From an uncultured Candidatus Saccharibacteria bacterium (GTDB lineage: Bacteria; Patescibacteriota; Minisyncoccia; UBA6257; Colwellbacteraceae): a stretch of 62,379 nucleotides of DNA. The stretch's first letter is position 1. Every line of letters starts with the position of its first letter. Of the stretch, positions 6,926 through 49,041 are shown in pieces. The notes beneath the pieces are model-generated. The model worked only from the letters and a program-made list of their open reading frames with translations, searched no databases and was not told the origin of the DNA. Location of the stretch: assembly GCA_964601595.1 (NCBI GenBank), contig CAZRNY010000002.1, positions 1 through 62,379 of the forward strand. The letters are read 5' to 3'. The position numbers and the translations under genes were made by a program.

Positions 6926-7696
6926 ATGAAGATAAAGCAATGGATTCGGTTAGCGATACTGGCTCTCGTCATTTTTATGACAATATTTGTCATATACGAA
7001 AAAGTAAGGGAGAGTAACTTTCCAGAGGAGACTGAGAAGCAGATATTAACGACAGAAAGCGTGACACAACCGACAACAGAACCAACTACAGAACCTGAAC
7101 CAACAACGGAGCCAACAACAGAACCAACTACAGAGCCGGAACCAACTACGGAACCAATAGTTCAACCGACTACGGAACCAACAACAGAGCCTACAGCTCA
7201 ACCGACAGCAGAACCAAAGCCAACAGAAAACAGCGTAATAATCCCTAAGGAGAATATCTATATTGTAGAAAAGACTCTTTGGGAAAAGGCGAGACTGATG
7301 GTTTTAAATGATGGAACTGTTGTTGATGGCATAGTGTTTGATCTACCTGCTAACACAACGATTTACTCACCAGTCGATGATCTTAAGATAAGCGACTTCG
7401 GTAGTTTCGTTGCAGATGGCGGAGGAAGCTCTATGTCCGTTAAGTTAACCAAAGGTGATAAAATCGTTCTTCTTGTAGCAAAGGGGATCAAGTTTGCTCC
7501 AGACGTTAAAGCAGGAAGTGTCTTGGAAAAGGGACAGCCGATGATCGTCATCTTATCGGATGATGTCATAGGTAAAGGAGCTATCTCTGATCCAGGTAAC
7601 TTTGTCTTTGATTTCTCGACTAAGACTCCTTCCAAAGCTTTGGGGGGCGACTCAGCTTTGGAAACTATCACAAAGTTTTTCGATTCTTGGAAGTAA
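6926..7696 (+). CDS. membrane-anchored surface protein with a long TEPTT stalk (third PT-stalk protein)
   Basis: RBS 'aagggggaa'. N-terminal TM helix. Tandem TEPTTEPEPTTEP repeats at nt ~7064-7226 share a 21-mer with ORF 3-869. The C-terminal domain has a hybrid-barrel-like pattern ('IYSPVDD...GSVLEKGQPM'). Confidence 0.7.
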   Translation: MKIKQWIRLAILALVIFMTIFVIYEKVRESNFPEETEKQILTTESVTQPTTEPTTEPEPTTEPTTEPTTEPEPTTEPIVQPTTEPTTEPTAQPTAEPKPTENSVIIPKENIYIVEKTLWEKARLMVLNDGTVVDGIVFDLPANTTIYSPVDDLKISDFGSFVADGGGSSMSVKLTKGDKIVLLVAKGIKFAPDVKAGSVLEKGQPMIVILSDDVIGKGAISDPGNFVFDFSTKTPSKALGGDSALETITKFFDSWK

Positions 7697-21979: not shown

Positions 21980-24979
<3,000 letters not shown>

Positions 24980-25059
24980 GGTCATTCAGGAGCGGATAAT
25001 GATTTTCTGCACAGAATAATACAATTTGATTTTTCGTTAAGCGTTTGATATATTCACTT

Positions 25060-25168
25060 TGCTCGGTGTTAACCATAGATTGTCCCACCCGATCCCATTC
25101 CGAACTCGGAAGTGAAAGATCTATGGAGCGATGATAGTCTTTCGAGGCAAAAGTAGCTTTGCCGGGCA
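25060..25168 (+). rRNA. rrf: 5S ribosomal RNA
   Basis: 'cccacccgatcccattccgaactcggaagtgaaag' core. Helix I closes with tgctcggt/gccgggca. Confidence 0.9.
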
Positions 25169-25178
25169 TTTACCAAAT

Positions 25179-25203
25179 AGCCGTCCCTAAAGGGCGGCTT
25201 TTT
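25179..25203 (+). terminator. rRNA operon terminator
   Basis: Stem 'agccgtccc/agggcggct' plus a T-run. Confidence 0.7.
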
Positions 25204-25210
25204 GATGTAC

Positions 25211-25320
25211 AAATCTCCAAATTTCTACTGCGGCGCGAGATTATTTGCTCGGCGTACCCGCTTCGCTACAAGTACGCCGTCGCTCACAATCTCTCACCTC
25301 GCTACGAAATTTTGAGATTC
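25211..25320. repeat. long-hairpin intergenic repeat, copy A
   Basis: Outer arms 'aaatctccaaatttc'/'gaaattttgagattc'. It shares the blocks CTACTGCG, GCTCGGCGTACCCGCT and CACCTCGCTAC with copies B-D. Confidence 0.6.
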
Positions 25321-25393
25321 GAAGAATTTGTTGCCTTTAAATAAGATTCAGCTATCGAAAAAAGAGGCCAAAGGTTATATAATCGGCATATAA

Positions 25394-37346: not shown

Positions 37347-37673
37347 GATGGGGGAGAGACTTAAAAGGATAAACATTACCAACTTGTCCGGCCGGACACA
37401 TTGGTAACGTTTGATATGAAAATTATTCAACGTTCGATCTGGCCGGCACATAAAAAGAGCTATCCGATGGATAGCTCGGCCAGACGCTTCGCTATCGAAC
37501 TAGTTATGTTATATCAGAGACCAAAGGTCTCTAACTAATTATTGTAGCCCCACAGCCTCTGCCTTTACGGACTACGTTAAAACGCAGTCTTCGGCAGAGT
37601 CTTAGGGACTCAGGTTTTGTCGTTTAAAAAGAGGAACACCGAAGTGTCCCTTTTTTTAAAACAAAAGCCATCG

Positions 37674-37857: not shown

Positions 37858-38658
37858 ATGACCCGAGTAATTGCCGTATGTAACCAGAAAGGAGGAGTCG
37901 GAAAGACGACCACATCAGTCAACCTGGGAGCATATCTCGCCCAATCGGGAAAGAAAGTCCTCCTTATAGACCTTGACCCTCAAGCAAACGCAAGCTCCGC
38001 TATGGGGCATGTTTTAGACCAAAGAGGGGACATTTATCATGGTATGTTCGGTCAGACTCGGCCTTTCGATACGATAAGGGCGTCGCAGGTGTCTGATTAC
38101 CACTATATTCCCTCTGGACCGCATCTTGCCGGAGCAATGGTAGAGCTCGTTAATGCCGAGGGTAGGGAATTCTATCTCCGTACTTTTCTCGATAATGTGA
38201 AGGAGTTCTATGATTATGTGATCATCGATCTTCCGCCGTCTCTCAGTCTTCTTACCATCAATGGATTACTTGCCGCAGACGAGGTGATAATTCCCGTTCA
38301 GGCCGAGTACTATTCTCTCGAAGGACTCAGTCAACTCCTTACGACCATAAATCTCATCAGAGAAAATATGGGTCATGATTTACATGTCGCTGGGGCGGTG
38401 ATAACGATGTTCGACAGATGGGAACAGCTGTCTCAGGAAGTGGCACGAAACCTGAGGACTAATTTTCCATACGGAGTGTATAATACTGAAATACCGAGAT
38501 CGGTTCATCTTGCCGAAGCACCGAGTTTTAATCAGCCGATATGCATATACGCGCCGACTTCCGCCGGAGCGATCGCTTATCAGGCCTTAGCCTTAGAAGT
38601 GATTAGTCAGGAAGTTCAAGCCGATAATGTTAGCGGCACCCAATATCAAGCCATCTGA
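37858..38658 (+). CDS. parA: ParA/Soj family partition ATPase
   Basis: Deviant Walker A 'NQKGGVGKTTTSVNLGAYLA', 'IIDLPP', 'IPRSVHLAEAPSF'. Confidence 0.92.
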   Translation: MTRVIAVCNQKGGVGKTTTSVNLGAYLAQSGKKVLLIDLDPQANASSAMGHVLDQRGDIYHGMFGQTRPFDTIRASQVSDYHYIPSGPHLAGAMVELVNAEGREFYLRTFLDNVKEFYDYVIIDLPPSLSLLTINGLLAADEVIIPVQAEYYSLEGLSQLLTTINLIRENMGHDLHVAGAVITMFDRWEQLSQEVARNLRTNFPYGVYNTEIPRSVHLAEAPSFNQPICIYAPTSAGAIAYQALALEVISQEVQADNVSGTQYQAI

Positions 38659-38670
38659 TAAATAAAACCT

Positions 38671-40077
38671 ATGTTAGGCAAAGGATTGGAATCTCTCATA
38701 CCTAAGAAACCAGAAGAAGGTCAGCCTTCTGCTTATTCCGGTCTTTCCGCGGAGCAGCCGGTCATCCGCCAGAACTATTATGCTGAGAAGCCGGTCGCGC
38801 AGACGGGGTATGGATTCATAAATCCAGTAGCTGAACAGAGCGTTCCGAGCCAGCCTGTTATTCCTGCCTCTTTCGTTCCGGCTTCACAGAATACCGGATA
38901 TGGTTTTATTAACCCCAACGCTCAGCCTGCTGTTGTTCCGACATACGCAGTACCTCAGACTGATCCGGAACCGGTGCAACCGTCTTATGGACATGCGGCA
39001 AAGACATATGACAATGATGATGTAATAGGAGCGGATTTCTCTTATCAAGTGCCGATAGAAAAACCGGTCGAGATGCCGGTTGCTACATCGGACTATTATC
39101 ATCATCCGGCACAGTCTCAGATCACGGAAAATATAAACCCTGCTATCCCTATTATCGTTGCCGCTCCTATTCATACCGAAGAAAAGCCAATTGAGCCATA
39201 TAAAGAGACTCAGCCTATCGCTCATAACGAGTATTTGGCTGAAGAGCTTGATTATTCGAGAAGGCAAGATGCCGTTTTCCAGATAGAGGTAGAAAAGATA
39301 TTCCCGAATCCGCATCAGCCAAGAAAATATTTCGATGATGCGGCTCTAAGCGATCTTGCCAATTCGATAAGAGAGTTCGGAATCATTCAACCTCTTGTCG
39401 TAACGAAAGTATTCAAAGAAACCGATACTGGAACGGAGGTCATCTATCAACTGATCGCGGGAGAAAGAAGACTAATGGCCGCGAAGCGGGTGGGGCTGCT
39501 TACCGTACCGGTTGTAATAAAGCAGGTATCGATGGATCGTGAGCGTCTTGAGCTTGCGATAATCGAGAACATCCAGCGTGAAAACCTTAACCCACTAGAA
39601 GCAGGAAGAAGCTACGCGAGGCTGCAGGACGAGTTCGGACTTACTCAGCGAGAGATAGCAATCAGAATGGGAAAGAGCCGTGAGACTGTGGCAAACACGC
39701 TCCGACTCCTTAATCTTCCGACAGAGATACAACAAGCGCTTGAAGAAGGAAAGATAAACGAGAGCCATGCGAGATTACTTCTCCAGATAGATGACATTCC
39801 GAGACAGAAGGAGATGTTCAACTCCATACTTCACTTCAAACCTTCCGTAAGGGAGTTGAAAGCGAAGATAAGAAGTGAAAAGGCGGGAATGCAGGGTAAT
39901 TATGGTTCTTATGCAAATCCCGCGCTCCAATCGCTGCAATCAAGACTGGAAGAGGTGCTCGGAACAAAAGTCTCGATCAACGACGAAGGGAGCAAGGGAA
40001 AGATAACGATCAATTATTATTCTCCTGAAGAACTTAACGGATTAATCGAAAGGCTTTCAGGAAAGGATCAATATTAG
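38671..40077 (+). CDS. parB: ParB/Spo0J partition protein with a ~200-aa low-complexity N-terminal extension
   Basis: ParB box 'FPNPHQPRKYFD..L..LANSIREFGIIQPLVV' and 'LIAGERRLMAAK', with HTH 'LTQREIAIRMGKSRETVANTLRLL'. The N-terminal 200 aa are P/Q/V-rich with a repeated 'TGYGFINP'. Confidence 0.9.
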   Translation: MLGKGLESLIPKKPEEGQPSAYSGLSAEQPVIRQNYYAEKPVAQTGYGFINPVAEQSVPSQPVIPASFVPASQNTGYGFINPNAQPAVVPTYAVPQTDPEPVQPSYGHAAKTYDNDDVIGADFSYQVPIEKPVEMPVATSDYYHHPAQSQITENINPAIPIIVAAPIHTEEKPIEPYKETQPIAHNEYLAEELDYSRRQDAVFQIEVEKIFPNPHQPRKYFDDAALSDLANSIREFGIIQPLVVTKVFKETDTGTEVIYQLIAGERRLMAAKRVGLLTVPVVIKQVSMDRERLELAIIENIQRENLNPLEAGRSYARLQDEFGLTQREIAIRMGKSRETVANTLRLLNLPTEIQQALEEGKINESHARLLLQIDDIPRQKEMFNSILHFKPSVRELKAKIRSEKAGMQGNYGSYANPALQSLQSRLEEVLGTKVSINDEGSKGKITINYYSPEELNGLIERLSGKDQY

Positions 40078-46470: not shown

Positions 46471-46544
46471 GGGCGATTAGCTCAGATGGTTAGAGCGTTA
46501 CATTGACATTGTAAAGGTCACTGGTTCGAGTCCAGTATCGCCCA
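46471..46544 (+). tRNA. tRNA-Val (anticodon GAC)
   Basis: Acceptor GGGCGAT/ATCGCCC, D-arm GCTC..GAGC, anticodon loop TTGACAT, T-loop TTCGAGT. Confidence 0.92.
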
Positions 46545-46549
46545 CAATT

Positions 46550-46662
46550 AAAACCTTTGAATCGCTACTGCGACAGGTGAATATTCACTCGGAGTATCAC
46601 TCCGCTTGATATACACCTTCGCTCATATTCACCTCGTCTCGCTACGCGATTCAGAGGTTTTT
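46550..46662. repeat. long-hairpin intergenic repeat, copy B (best-preserved)
   Basis: Outer arms 'aaacctttgaatcgc'/'gcgattcagaggttt', inner arms 'aggtgaatat'/'atattcacct', central hairpin 'cggagtatcactccg'. It begins 6 nt after tRNA-Val. Confidence 0.7.
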
Positions 46663-46728
46663 AAAAAACTGGAATCGAACATTAAAGGGGGTCTAATAAA
46701 AAATGTCTCTTGCGAGACATTTTCTTAC

Positions 46729-46760
46729 TGTGGGCGTATCTAGGGACCTCTGTCTTATAG
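46729..46760 (-). pseudogene. degenerate copy of the tRNA-Ile 3' portion
   Basis: 'ctgtgggcgta..tagggacctctgtcttat' matches the genuine gene (46791-46831) apart from a ~12-nt deletion of the T-loop region. Confidence 0.6.
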
Positions 46761-46792: not shown

Positions 46793-46864
46793 TGGGCGTA
46801 CCAGGGATCGAACCTGGGACCTCTGTCTTATCAGGACAGCGTTCTACCACTGAACTATGCGCCC
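46793..46864 (-). tRNA. tRNA-Ile (anticodon GAT)
   Basis: Reverse complement: GGGCGCA..TACGCCC acceptor (one C6:A67 mismatch), anticodon loop CTGATAA, T-loop TTCGATC. A minus-strand terminator lies at ~46700-46727. Confidence 0.85.
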
Positions 46865-46918
46865 GTCTGATATTCACATATCGCCCGAGCGAACCAACTA
46901 TATTTATCTAATAAATAG

Positions 46919-46951
46919 CAGGACAGCGTTCTACCACTGAACTATGCGCCC
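46919..46951 (-). pseudogene. exact 33-nt duplicate of the tRNA-Ile 5' half
   Basis: 'caggacagcgttctaccactgaactatgcgccc' is identical to 46832-46864. The copy ends inside the anticodon loop. Confidence 0.8.
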
Positions 46952-48060: not shown

Positions 48061-48104
48061 ATATTTTAAAAGAACCCTGTTGGGTTCTTTTAAAATATAT
48101 AGGG

Positions 48105-48215
48105 TCTTTAAATCTTTATTGTGGCAAATGATTGCTCGTTCGGCGTACCCGCTCCGATGCAATATACCTTCGTTCGCTTTCGCCTCGTCTCGCTACGGGA
48201 TTAGAAGGCTTGAGA
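48105..48215. repeat. long-hairpin intergenic repeat, copy C (degenerate)
   Basis: It shares 'gctcgttcggcgtacccgctccg', 'accttcgttcgc' and 'cgcctcgtctcgctacgggat' with copies A, B and D. Confidence 0.5.
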
Positions 48216-48319
48216 GTAACCACTTGCCTTGCCATAAGATTCAGAGCCTAAAGAGGGGAACCTTATCTTAGTCAGGCTACTCTTGAAGAAAAGCGGGGGA
48301 TAGGATATATTTTTTTTGC

Positions 48320-48403
48320 GCGCGGGTGGCGAAATTGGTAGACGCACTACCTTGAGGTGGTAGCGCCCGCAAGGGCTTGGAGGTTCGAGTCCTCTCTCGC
48401 GCA
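48320..48403 (+). tRNA. tRNA-Leu (anticodon GAG)
   Basis: Acceptor GCGCGGG/CTCGCGC, anticodon loop TTGAGGT, long variable arm, T-arm GGAGG TTCGAGT CCTCT. Confidence 0.9.
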
Positions 48404-48405
48404 CT

Positions 48406-48447: not shown

Positions 48448-48456
48448 ATATGTTGG

Positions 48457-48572
48457 AAGAGGACTCGAACACCGGACTGATGATTTTCCAGCAGGAAAAT
48501 CGAGGGAGGGGAGCCTGAGGCCGAAGCGAGGCGACGGCCGAGCTGAGAGTCGAAGGAGAGTCCTCTCTCGCG
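48457..48572. repeat. tRNA-Leu-end-derived inverted-repeat element X1
   Basis: The left end 'aagaggactcgaac' is the reverse complement of the tRNA-Leu T-arm. The right end 'gagtcctctctcgcg' is identical over 15 nt to the tRNA 3' end. An internal 8-bp hairpin is 'gattttcc agca ggaaaatc'. Confidence 0.55.
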
Positions 48573-48597
48573 TCCCAAAAGGGGCGGTATTTTTGTT

Positions 48598-48729
48598 GCG
48601 AGAGGGACTCGAACGTTGAAGGGGGTCGGGGGAAGATTCTAAATCTTCCTCCGTGTAGGAAGAGATTAGGAACCGAGGGTTCTTAAAGCGCAACCCGAAG
48701 GGCGAGTAGTAAGATTCCTCTCTCGCGCA
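48598..48729. repeat. tRNA-Leu-end-derived inverted-repeat element X2
   Basis: Left end 'gcgagagggactcgaac'; right end 'tcctctctcgcgcac' (15 nt identical to the tRNA 3' end). An internal hairpin is 'ggaagatt cta aatcttcc'. It is followed by a terminator palindrome (48733-48773) resembling the one after the real tRNA. Confidence 0.55.
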
Positions 48730-48784
48730 CCAGATATAAAAAGAGAGCTTGTTGCAAGCTCTCTTTTTATATCAAAGTTACTGA

Positions 48785-48880
48785 TCTCTACTGCGAACAG
48801 GTAAATATTCGCTCGGAGTATCGCTCCGCTTCAATACACCTTCGTTTGTTTTTTTGTCTTGTCTCGCTACTGCGATATTC
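48785..48880. repeat. long-hairpin intergenic repeat, copy D
   Basis: 'ctactgcgaacaggtaaatattcgctcggagtatcgctccgcttcaatacaccttcg...cttgtctcgctactgcgat' is closest to copy B. Confidence 0.65.
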
Positions 48881-49041
48881 CAAGCGCCTTGTATGATGAG
48901 AGCGAAAATAGAATCTATTTTCCTAATGGTGAAATCACCGGAAAGGGAGATGAGAAGTGTTATTATTTCGAAAGTGCGAGAGAAAGCTGTGAGGCTATTT
49001 GGAGGGATAGCCGATCATAAAGAAGATATGTATATACACCG

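Follow-up and report, generated by a model that had tools for sequence, protein, structure and literature searches.

Integron attC sites, 57–141 nt long with core sites RYYYAAC ... GTTRRRY at the base of a hairpin, end each cassette of an array beside intI/attI on its 3′ side and act as folded single strands: their structure is conserved over sequence, some bases never pair and all sites have one polarity. IS200/IS605 elements and their miniature derivatives, PATEs, have two small hairpins in sub-terminal position and enter on the 3′ side of a fixed 4–5-nt target, and REP and BIME sequences bind gyrase. A REP is a 20–40-bp imperfect palindrome with a 6–13-bp stem, a short loop and an unpaired GTAG or CGTC tag at one end (PMC3733652), and the ERIC, Correia, RUP, SPRITE, CIR and RPE families are palindromic or MITE-like (miniature inverted-repeat transposable element) intergenic repeats of ~100–170 nt in bacteria (PMC3184786). 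Here we describe a small and previously undescribed family of ~110-nt hairpin repeats that follow stable-RNA genes, four copies of which lie in a 62,379-nt stretch of DNA (hereafter the window) from an uncultured candidate-phylum bacterium of Parcubacteria/Paceibacteria type (contig CAZRNY010000002.1, assembly GCA_964601595.1). In size and shape the element falls into one class with ERIC, Correia, RUP, SPRITE, CIR and RPE, and it fails the defining features of REP/REPIN, of MITEs with terminal inverted repeats (TIRs) and of attC. Genomes of candidate phyla are tiny and tightly packed, with few recognised repeats or non-coding RNAs, and our literature search found no description of tRNA-associated palindromic repeats from the candidate phyla radiation or Parcubacteria.

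The preliminary description of the window placed four copies, A to D, beside stable-RNA genes, and both the copies and their neighbours proved correct: all four are homologous and lie on the + strand. Copy A (25212–25319; covariance-model score 109–117 bits) begins its hairpin ~8 nt past the T-run of the 5S intrinsic terminator, a + strand stem-loop (25179–25204) directly 5′ of it. Copy B (46550–46661), the best-formed hairpin of the window, lies 4–6 nt past tRNA-Val-GAC (46471–46545, +), whose 3′ end it abuts with no separate terminator between, and is followed by TTTTT. Copy C (48102–48211) is decayed; starting immediately past the rplS terminator, it sits between that hairpin (48066–48094, +; A-run/stem/T-run, read from sequence, with the same layout in a close relative, locus L008) and the promoter of tRNA-Leu-GAG (48320–48404, +), ending ~105 nt before that gene; a promoter-like site, TTGAAG-17-TATATT (48283–48311), lies in the interval. 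Copy D (48780–48879; 66 bits) is degenerate and has lost its 3′ outer arm; it lies downstream of tRNA-Leu-GAG, past the second of two tRNA-Leu-derived elements and a directly adjoining A/T-flanked terminator hairpin (48734–48773, +; read from sequence, with only generic hairpin matches in Rfam). Mean column identity in the alignment of the four is 74%, and their similarity is beyond chance: single-sequence nhmmer retrieves the remaining window copies at E = 1e-5 to 1e-10, and leave-one-out profiles of three copies retrieve the fourth at E = 1e-11 to 5e-22, with the next window match at E > 0.2. With filters off, cmsearch scores the four at 98–134 bits and the rest of the window at ≤17 bits; covariance-model matches in the window search span 25207–25329, 46547–46669, 48098–48220 and 48770–48889. 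Neither nhmmer nor cmsearch with filters off finds a fifth copy in the 62 kb. A scrambled fragment in inverse orientation, proposed at 46866–46905, is not significant (best single-sequence E = 5.9; missed by a 12-copy profile), and since this sequence is conserved upstream of tRNA-Ile in a close relative it is more likely tRNA-Ile upstream or promoter sequence.

The blocks first noticed in fixed order are present in the copies and resolve into a layout that runs, 5′ to 3′, from a variable outer stem of ~15 bp through a CTACTGCGACAG box and a variable middle stem of ~10 bp to a conserved apex of ~40 nt (YCRCTCGGAGTACCCGCTTCGCT-N5-GTACACCTTCGYTCR), and returns through the middle-stem strand, a CGTCTCGCTAC box and the outer-stem strand. 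In copy B, all on the + strand, these are the outer arms (46550–46565 and 46646–46661), 5′ box (46565–46576), middle stem (46575–46584 and 46625–46634), apex (46585–46624) and 3′ box (46635–46645). The two boxes oppose one another as an imperfect helix with invariant C·C, T·G and C·T oppositions and a bulged C; within it are two CTAC motifs (GTAG when read on the − strand), in direct orientation to each other. Conservation is highest in the apex of the element, and the arms are the variable part. Not every copy forms the single long hairpin originally claimed for each. Copy A does (RNA fold z = −4.1 on the + strand, −6.7 on the − strand), as does copy B (−48.3 kcal/mol, z = −9.7; 38 of 41 pairs Watson–Crick), whereas copies C (z = +0.5) and D (z = −2.0) have no strong long hairpin and are decayed. 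In copy C the oppositions include 12 G·T and 3 A·C, Watson–Crick pairing has fallen to 22/41 and the outer stem is kept through G·U pairs alone. Three candidate explanations of parts of the sequence were rejected. The outer arms are not an older terminator entered by a CTAC-to-CTAC core, because they are homologous across copies (...CTTYNAAATYNC); the 70% complementarity over 37 nt between the 5′ arm of copy C and the 23S 3′ end (24930–24966) equals that of the best random inverted pairs of the window and is chance; and no conserved start codon or open reading frame (ORF) was read from the elements on either strand.

A covariance-model search of relatives, as the preliminary description had proposed, extended the family by 8 further full copies and 2 significant 3′-half fragments, giving 12 full copies in at least 5 genomes. 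Loci from syntenic relatives were recovered by protein-anchored look-ups, and those compared with the window are labelled by L-numbers; the sequence read came to ~60 kb for the source genome and to at most ~20 kb for each relative. Three copies belong to the closest relative (RluA 89% and RodA 85% identical): B′ (L008:7539–7662), the orthologue of copy B after tRNA-Val; C′ (L008:11071–11192), the orthologue of copy C between rplS and tRNA-Leu; and a copy after 5S (L023:8862–8977). Both 3′-half fragments are also in L023 (profile-search E = 3e-6 and 4e-6). Four copies came from JGI metagenomes, scanned with a three-block pattern and blind to the presence of RNA genes; of 10 matches, 4 are true by covariance model (92–111 bits): L017, 40 nt after 5S and the positional counterpart of copy A; L019, 35 nt after tRNA-Gly; L020, ~200 nt after tRNA-Arg; and L021 (L021:2133–2257, −), ~200 nt after tRNA-Leu-GAG and the positional counterpart of copy D. 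The last, at L028:9835–9959, 34 nt after 5S, was found with a second covariance model (R2) and is decayed, as are window copies C and D. L017 is syntenic with the window though its 23S is just 87% identical, and L021 with the rplS/tRNA-Leu region. The copies in L017 and L021, from sister samples and possibly one genome, are more alike (85% identical) than are copy A and that of L017 (61%), which fill one site in different genomes. The two sub-types proposed at the outset, A/C and B/D, hold within the window but become indistinct across the family as a whole, in which CGGAGTACCCGCTTCG is the usual form. Further afield, a strict two-block pattern scan of GTDB gave six matches in unrelated taxa, which are chance (best covariance-model E = 0.07). 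Viral contigs yielded 0 matches to whole-element, 5′-half or 3′-half hairpin patterns, and blastn of a hairpin joined to its neighbouring repeat (the T-element, below) against phages and plasmids found none. No Rfam family matches the elements at the gathering threshold, which only tRNA, 5S and 23S pass, and E-value mode returned weak generic-hairpin and microRNA noise far under threshold.

That the outer arms vary yet stay self-complementary, as first claimed, is borne out by covariation. In a MAFFT alignment of 10 copies, some of them related by descent, the 41-pair hairpin has 91.8% of cells paired, against 33–45% with slid partners, and 24/41 pairs show two-sided changes, a number reached in 0/500 shuffles; by this measure the element has the covariation-supported structure of a generic structured cis-acting RNA. 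It also bears on a BIME-like reading, in which the element would be a dyad-symmetric protein site in double-stranded DNA, for gyrase or a nucleoid protein for example, easing supercoiling past heavily transcribed genes. Placement directly downstream of 5S, tRNA and rplS and a ~115-bp length with dyad symmetry would suit such a site. The arms, however, differ between copies yet are complementary within each, which points to selection on intra-strand pairing and not on half-site sequence; polarity is fixed though a symmetric duplex site needs none, and distribution is patchy. We regard this reading as highly improbable.

The kind of pairing speaks to the molecule under selection. Across the 12 copies we count 402 Watson–Crick pairs, 38 G·T (12 from the invariant pair and 26 variable) and 23 A·C oppositions. 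Variable G·T to A·C stands at 17:4 in copies C and D, favouring the + strand, and at 9:19 in the other ten, favouring the − strand; taken together, neither strand has a consistent excess of wobble pairs. Between positional orthologues, two-sided changes outnumber wobble intermediates 8 to 0 (B/B′) and 12 to 0 (A/L017), and as single-stranded DNA (ssDNA) both strands fold equally well (z = −6 to −8). We read the near-pure Watson–Crick stems, the two-sided changes and the folding of both strands as those of a palindrome preserved as DNA, or else one whose pairing is selected very strictly, more than as the evolution of a typical RNA helix.

All 12 full copies start 0–15 nt beyond either an intrinsic terminator or the 3′ end of a tRNA, real or duplicated, and are co-oriented with the gene. 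That gene is 5S for four copies, tRNA-Val for two, tRNA-Leu for two, and tRNA-Arg and tRNA-Gly for one each; the remaining two occupy the rplS–tRNA-Leu spacer. An intrinsic terminator precedes seven copies: A, L017, L023 and L028 (5S), C and C′ (rplS) and L019 (tRNA-Gly). D and L021 are preceded by a terminator that itself follows a T-element, copy B follows the tRNA-Val 3′ end directly, and in front of B′ and L020 stands a tRNA 3′ end that is a duplicate. The claim that the repeats are restricted to RNA-gene flanks is no more than suggestive in the window, since most large spacers of this compact genome flank RNA genes: a random same-strand placement in spacers long enough falls near an RNA gene with a chance of ~0.26. 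The link becomes convincing only when copies from other genomes are added. Then all 12, at ~6–7 independent sites and including 4/4 of the true blind-scan matches (L017, L019, L020 and L021, each adjoining a stable-RNA gene on the same strand), lie downstream of and co-oriented with an RNA gene, and none was found in >100 protein-gene spacers over ~180 kb of hairpin-bearing genomes, a spacer count that is approximate and inferred from gene tables.

The seven copies behind a terminator would be transcribed only through read-through. A run of T4–5 follows the hairpin in B, L020 and L021 only, and these probably double as terminators; as the sole terminator-like structure after tRNA-Val, copy B is probably a co-opted one. 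A simple terminator scan called no copy, its loop and stem limits excluding hairpins of this length. The three share with intrinsic terminators the A-run/stem/T-run form at the end of a transcription unit, whereas the element at large is ~5 times longer, contains conserved internal boxes, usually stands behind an ordinary terminator and mostly lacks a T-run.

Set beside known families, the element resembles REP and REPIN as an extragenic palindromic hairpin mostly downstream of genes, vertically persistent at conserved positions and with complementary stem changes; the GTAG tag at the foot of the REP hairpin also has a parallel in the GTAG of both boxes on the − strand (PMC3733652). It differs from REP as a single ~110-nt, ~41-pair hairpin with two CTAC/GTAG boxes in direct orientation, apparently of low copy number and restricted to stable-RNA flanks, as REPs are not. 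In a REPIN, two REPs stand inverted about a variable spacer; here the apex, which takes the place of the spacer, is more conserved than any other part, and it is the arms that vary. The REPIN system includes a single-copy RAYT (Y1 transposase) gene flanked by the repeats; none was found among the 30 window ORFs or in the Pfam lists of related loci. From a TIR-type MITE the family departs in its outer arms, which vary with compensation, and in the lack of flanking direct repeats: neither target-site duplications nor a conserved target motif or flank was found around the 12 copies. Like a MITE, it shows presence/absence polymorphism at conserved sites, although exact empty-site boundaries were not recovered. 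Size, a long imperfect hairpin, an intergenic and often 3′-of-gene location, possible RNA effects and terminator-like forms (in SPRITE) ally it with ERIC, Correia, RUP, SPRITE, CIR and RPE (PMC3184786). It has no sequence similarity to them: the ERIC type has conserved TIRs and TA duplications where this family has variable arms and no duplication, and an association with tRNA or rRNA genes is a feature of none of the six. With IS200/IS605 and PATEs it shares the ssDNA hairpin recognition that we propose below, the lack of target duplication and a replication-strand polarity; it differs in having a single long hairpin and no conserved flank.

Our preferred reading, held tentatively and with somewhat less than even confidence, is that the elements are REPIN/ERIC-like ssDNA hairpin repeats with a preference for the 3′ flanks of stable-RNA genes. 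They would form a vertically persisting population of ~110-nt palindromic DNA repeats, kin in kind to REPIN and ERIC and in family to neither. The functional form would probably be the ssDNA hairpin, in which the variable outer (~15 bp) and middle (~10 bp) stems present the invariant CTACTGCGACAG and CGTCTCGCTAC boxes; these, with their fixed mismatches, the bulged C and the ~40-nt apex, could be the recognition surface for a trans-acting enzyme, which at a guess would be an HUH/Y1-type transposase. Copies may be duplicated or re-inserted, and tolerated, 3′ of the stem-loops (terminators and tRNA acceptor ends) that close highly expressed stable-RNA genes, always with the polarity of the gene, which is also that of the leading strand, and arm complementarity may be upheld by selection for the hairpin, by hairpin-templated correction or by both. 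GC skew is above zero across the whole window, which gives the + strand, and hence all four window copies, leading-strand polarity; this fits ssDNA-based elements. Between the mobile-hairpin and RNA-module interpretations offered at the outset, the evidence leans to the former, in a form that is neither a classical MITE nor a REP. On that side we count the nature of the stem changes, the equal folding of both DNA strands, the seven copies behind a terminator, the patchy presence with decay and with truncated copies stacked at one site, and the closer likeness of the L017 copy to that of L021 than to copy A.

Several observations weigh against this. Pfam searches show no transposase, recombinase or integrase in the 30 window ORFs or in the lists for ~200 kb of related loci, and the absence of target-site duplications and of a conserved target motif at the 12 copies counts on the same side. 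Mobility we infer, as we obtained no pair of empty and filled sites whose boundaries were exact. With internal boxes and an apex that do not change and stems that vary and covary, the element reverses the conservation pattern of a TIR-type MITE and resembles a structured RNA. The boxes are nearly identical across genomes whose 23S is just 87% identical, the 5S site is filled in four lineages, and B/B′ and C/C′ look like orthologues still pairing in situ, all of which could reflect a host-level function. The excess of G·T over A·C in copies C and D (17 versus 4, the invariant T·G aside) is as expected for + strand RNA pairing. Finally, since much spare non-coding DNA of these compact genomes lies beside RNA genes, the association with such genes may partly be survivorship and show where insertions are tolerated.

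Much of this would suit a cis-acting RNA module, in which tRNA, 5S and rplS transcripts would carry the + strand hairpin as their 3′ trailer or gain it by read-through. It could be a processing or decay site for a double-strand RNase of RNase III type, a structure that protects the 3′ end, or else a reserve terminator or an insulator keeping very highly expressed stable-RNA units apart from the genes downstream, with the boxes and apex binding a protein. The sense orientation of 12/12 copies just downstream of an RNA gene is in keeping with this, as are the position of B, B′ and L020 after a real or duplicated tRNA 3′ end without a terminator, the T4–5 ends of B, L020 and L021 and the combination of conserved unpaired boxes and covarying stems, a classical structured-RNA signature. 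Box conservation across 87% 23S identity, retention of the 5S site in four lineages, and the invariant T·G pair with the G·T excess of C and D point the same way, and ERIC has been reported to affect mRNA decay at the RNA level (PMC3184786). Seven copies, however, stand behind a good intrinsic terminator with no room for a promoter of their own, the ten better-kept copies have more A·C than variable G·T (19 versus 9) and orthologues show no wobble intermediates between them. Close relatives that share the gene order also lack the hairpin, as do about half of the stable-RNA loci in genomes that bear it; decay and truncation of copies are tolerated, and no Rfam family matches. We regard an RNA module as the chief rival to the ssDNA repeat, plausible and less probable.

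Unlikelier again is a more ambitious proposal, in which the hairpins, possibly with the T-elements, would be a dedicated system of this Parcubacteria clade for marking where stable-RNA transcription units stop on the 3′ side. In one version a bacterial ssDNA element would actively seek out the ends of tRNA and rRNA genes as 'safe havens', much as eukaryotic retrotransposons target RNA polymerase III genes; in the other, a host-domesticated RNA or DNA module, with a clade-specific protein, would process or insulate tRNA and rRNA read-through. The low probability that we give covers both versions jointly. Were the element a site-selective ssDNA element, it would represent RNA-gene-targeted 'safe-haven' insertion in bacteria and point to a further enzyme; were it an RNA module, a new cis-element would be added to those by which stable RNAs are terminated or processed at the 3′ end. 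On either reading it is a candidate for a new family of the Rfam or Dfam type and a useful clade marker.

The family is clade-limited and patchy, with decay and turnover. Conserved sites are filled in some syntenic relatives and empty in others. The site after 5S is filled in the window, L023, L017 and L028 and empty in L027, L032 and L035/L036; that after tRNA-Val is filled in the window and L008 and empty in L009, L011 and L037. The rplS–tRNA-Leu site is filled in the window and L008 and empty in L009, L011, L021 and L037, and the site after tRNA-Leu-GAG is filled in the window (D) and L021 and empty in L008, L009, L011 and L037. Among the stable-RNA loci seen in hairpin-bearing genomes about half carry a copy; tRNA-Ala and tRNA-Leu-CAA of the window do not. 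Turnover at one site is visible in L023, where a new, apex-deleted copy adjoins the 5S terminator and older, 5′-truncated ones are stacked behind it (L023:8980–9160): first an A-like 3′ half, then another 3′ half, and lastly a short fragment, identified by eye, that is similar to the 3′ arm of the B′ type. At another 5S locus, L028:8597–9692, the 23S–5S spacer is ~1.1 kb, compared with ~80 nt in the window, and may hold an rRNA-operon insertion.

Relative to the window, L008 carries extra cargo in two insertions (L008:7730–9472 and L008:11467–12954), which include two paralogous genes with prepilin-type N_methyl and FGE-sulfatase domains and shared promoter-like leaders. One insertion (1.85 kb, two genes, including a small DUF1653-like gene) starts exactly at the 3′ end of B′; the other follows a tRNA-Leu T-element fragment, where the window has copy D, and is not beside a hairpin. 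Cargo beside tRNAs in this way suggests that tRNA flanks are insertion hot spots. It also raises an attC-like interpretation, in which the hairpin would be a folded-strand site or landing pad for a site-specific recombinase that swaps cargo beside tRNA and rRNA genes. At ~110 nt the element falls within the attC size range, and it likewise combines an imperfect palindrome with conserved structure, a covarying stem, fixed unpaired bases (mismatches and a bulge near the base) and uniform polarity; the insertion at B′ and the paralogous cargo after tRNA-Leu at the D site would be the swapped material. Against this, CTACTGCGACAG and CGTCTCGCTAC lack the AAC/GTT pair of R-box motifs and thus the attC core sites, the apex is the most conserved part where the attC centre is variable, copies are single and dispersed with no cassette array, neither IntI nor any other integrase is found in any locus examined, and the second L008 insertion lies away from a hairpin. 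We think the interpretation very improbable.

The T-elements are a second structured repeat family, ~130–165 nt long, found after a tRNA and its terminator. Each starts with an inverted copy of the T-loop, T-stem and acceptor 3′ strand of its own tRNA, so that the tRNA end, the terminator and the inverted copy make one long palindrome; continues through a conserved core (TCGAACG..GGGGTCGGG, a covarying 12-bp hairpin, CGTGTAGGA, a GGAACCGAGGGTTCC hairpin and GAGCAGTGAGAYTCC); and ends in a direct duplicate of the tRNA 3′ end. They were observed for tRNAs Leu, Val, Ile and Arg, with compensatory changes in 12/31 predicted pairs, and have no match in Rfam or, by pattern, in viral contigs. Two lie in the window at 48591–48737 and 48452–48577, with fragments at 46661–46693 and 37421–37450 (−); relatives have them at L008:7377–7541, ~L008:9547–9660 (−), L020:7152–7319, L021:2283–2417 (−) and L011:9775–9906. 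The hairpin might be part of these elements, which are reminiscent of integrative-element scars, and no independent entity, given that B′, D, L020 and L021 directly follow a T-element and that B and L019 are followed by a T-element 5′ fragment. T-elements nevertheless occur both with and without hairpins (without one at tRNA-Val of L011 and tRNA-Leu-CAA of the window), and no T-element accompanies the hairpins after 5S (four copies) or C and C′, which largely refutes this view and leaves it scarcely credible. It, the duplex-site and the attC-like explanations are less likely than an ssDNA element or an RNA module. Hairpins and T-elements together make the flanks of stable-RNA genes a dynamic compartment of such genomes.

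Other duplications and palindromes accompany tRNA genes here. The 5′ half of tRNA-Ile-GAT (−) is duplicated 87 nt upstream at 97% identity (46829–46864 versus 46916–46951), also in L008, and a degenerate copy of its 3′ part without the T-arm lies just downstream of the gene (46731–46760). A palindrome at 37371–37412, with 24-nt arms 88% complementary, lies ~260 nt downstream of tRNA-Leu-CAA (−) beside a T-element 5′ fragment, and the ~380-nt spacer at this gene holds further hairpins.

The window is 9.6% non-coding and encodes 23S (21980–24981) and 5S (25062–25167) rRNA, five tRNA genes and housekeeping proteins (RodA, YceG, RpoB/C, S6, SSB, ParA/B, RelA/SpoT, TopA, DprA, an RluA-family protein, L19 and RecO) whose nearest homologues are in metagenome-assembled genomes of Parcubacteria, Paceibacterota or Colwellbacteria. 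A look-up with the rplS product of the window retrieved a single 1.45-kb Logan contig, 99.9% identical, which added nothing new. The parA and parB genes (37858–40077) adjoin tRNA-Leu-CAA; with the uniformly positive GC skew, their location is consistent with a single replichore, possibly near the origin. Three ORFs (3–869, 980–1681 and 6926–7696), repeat-bearing or paralogous, have no Pfam match. The first two are neighbouring paralogues of unknown function, with segments 71–89% identical at a spacing of 818 nt, and ORFs 3–869 and 6926–7696 contain Pro/Thr/Glu-rich repeats with a 12-nt period (258–362 and 7070–7231).

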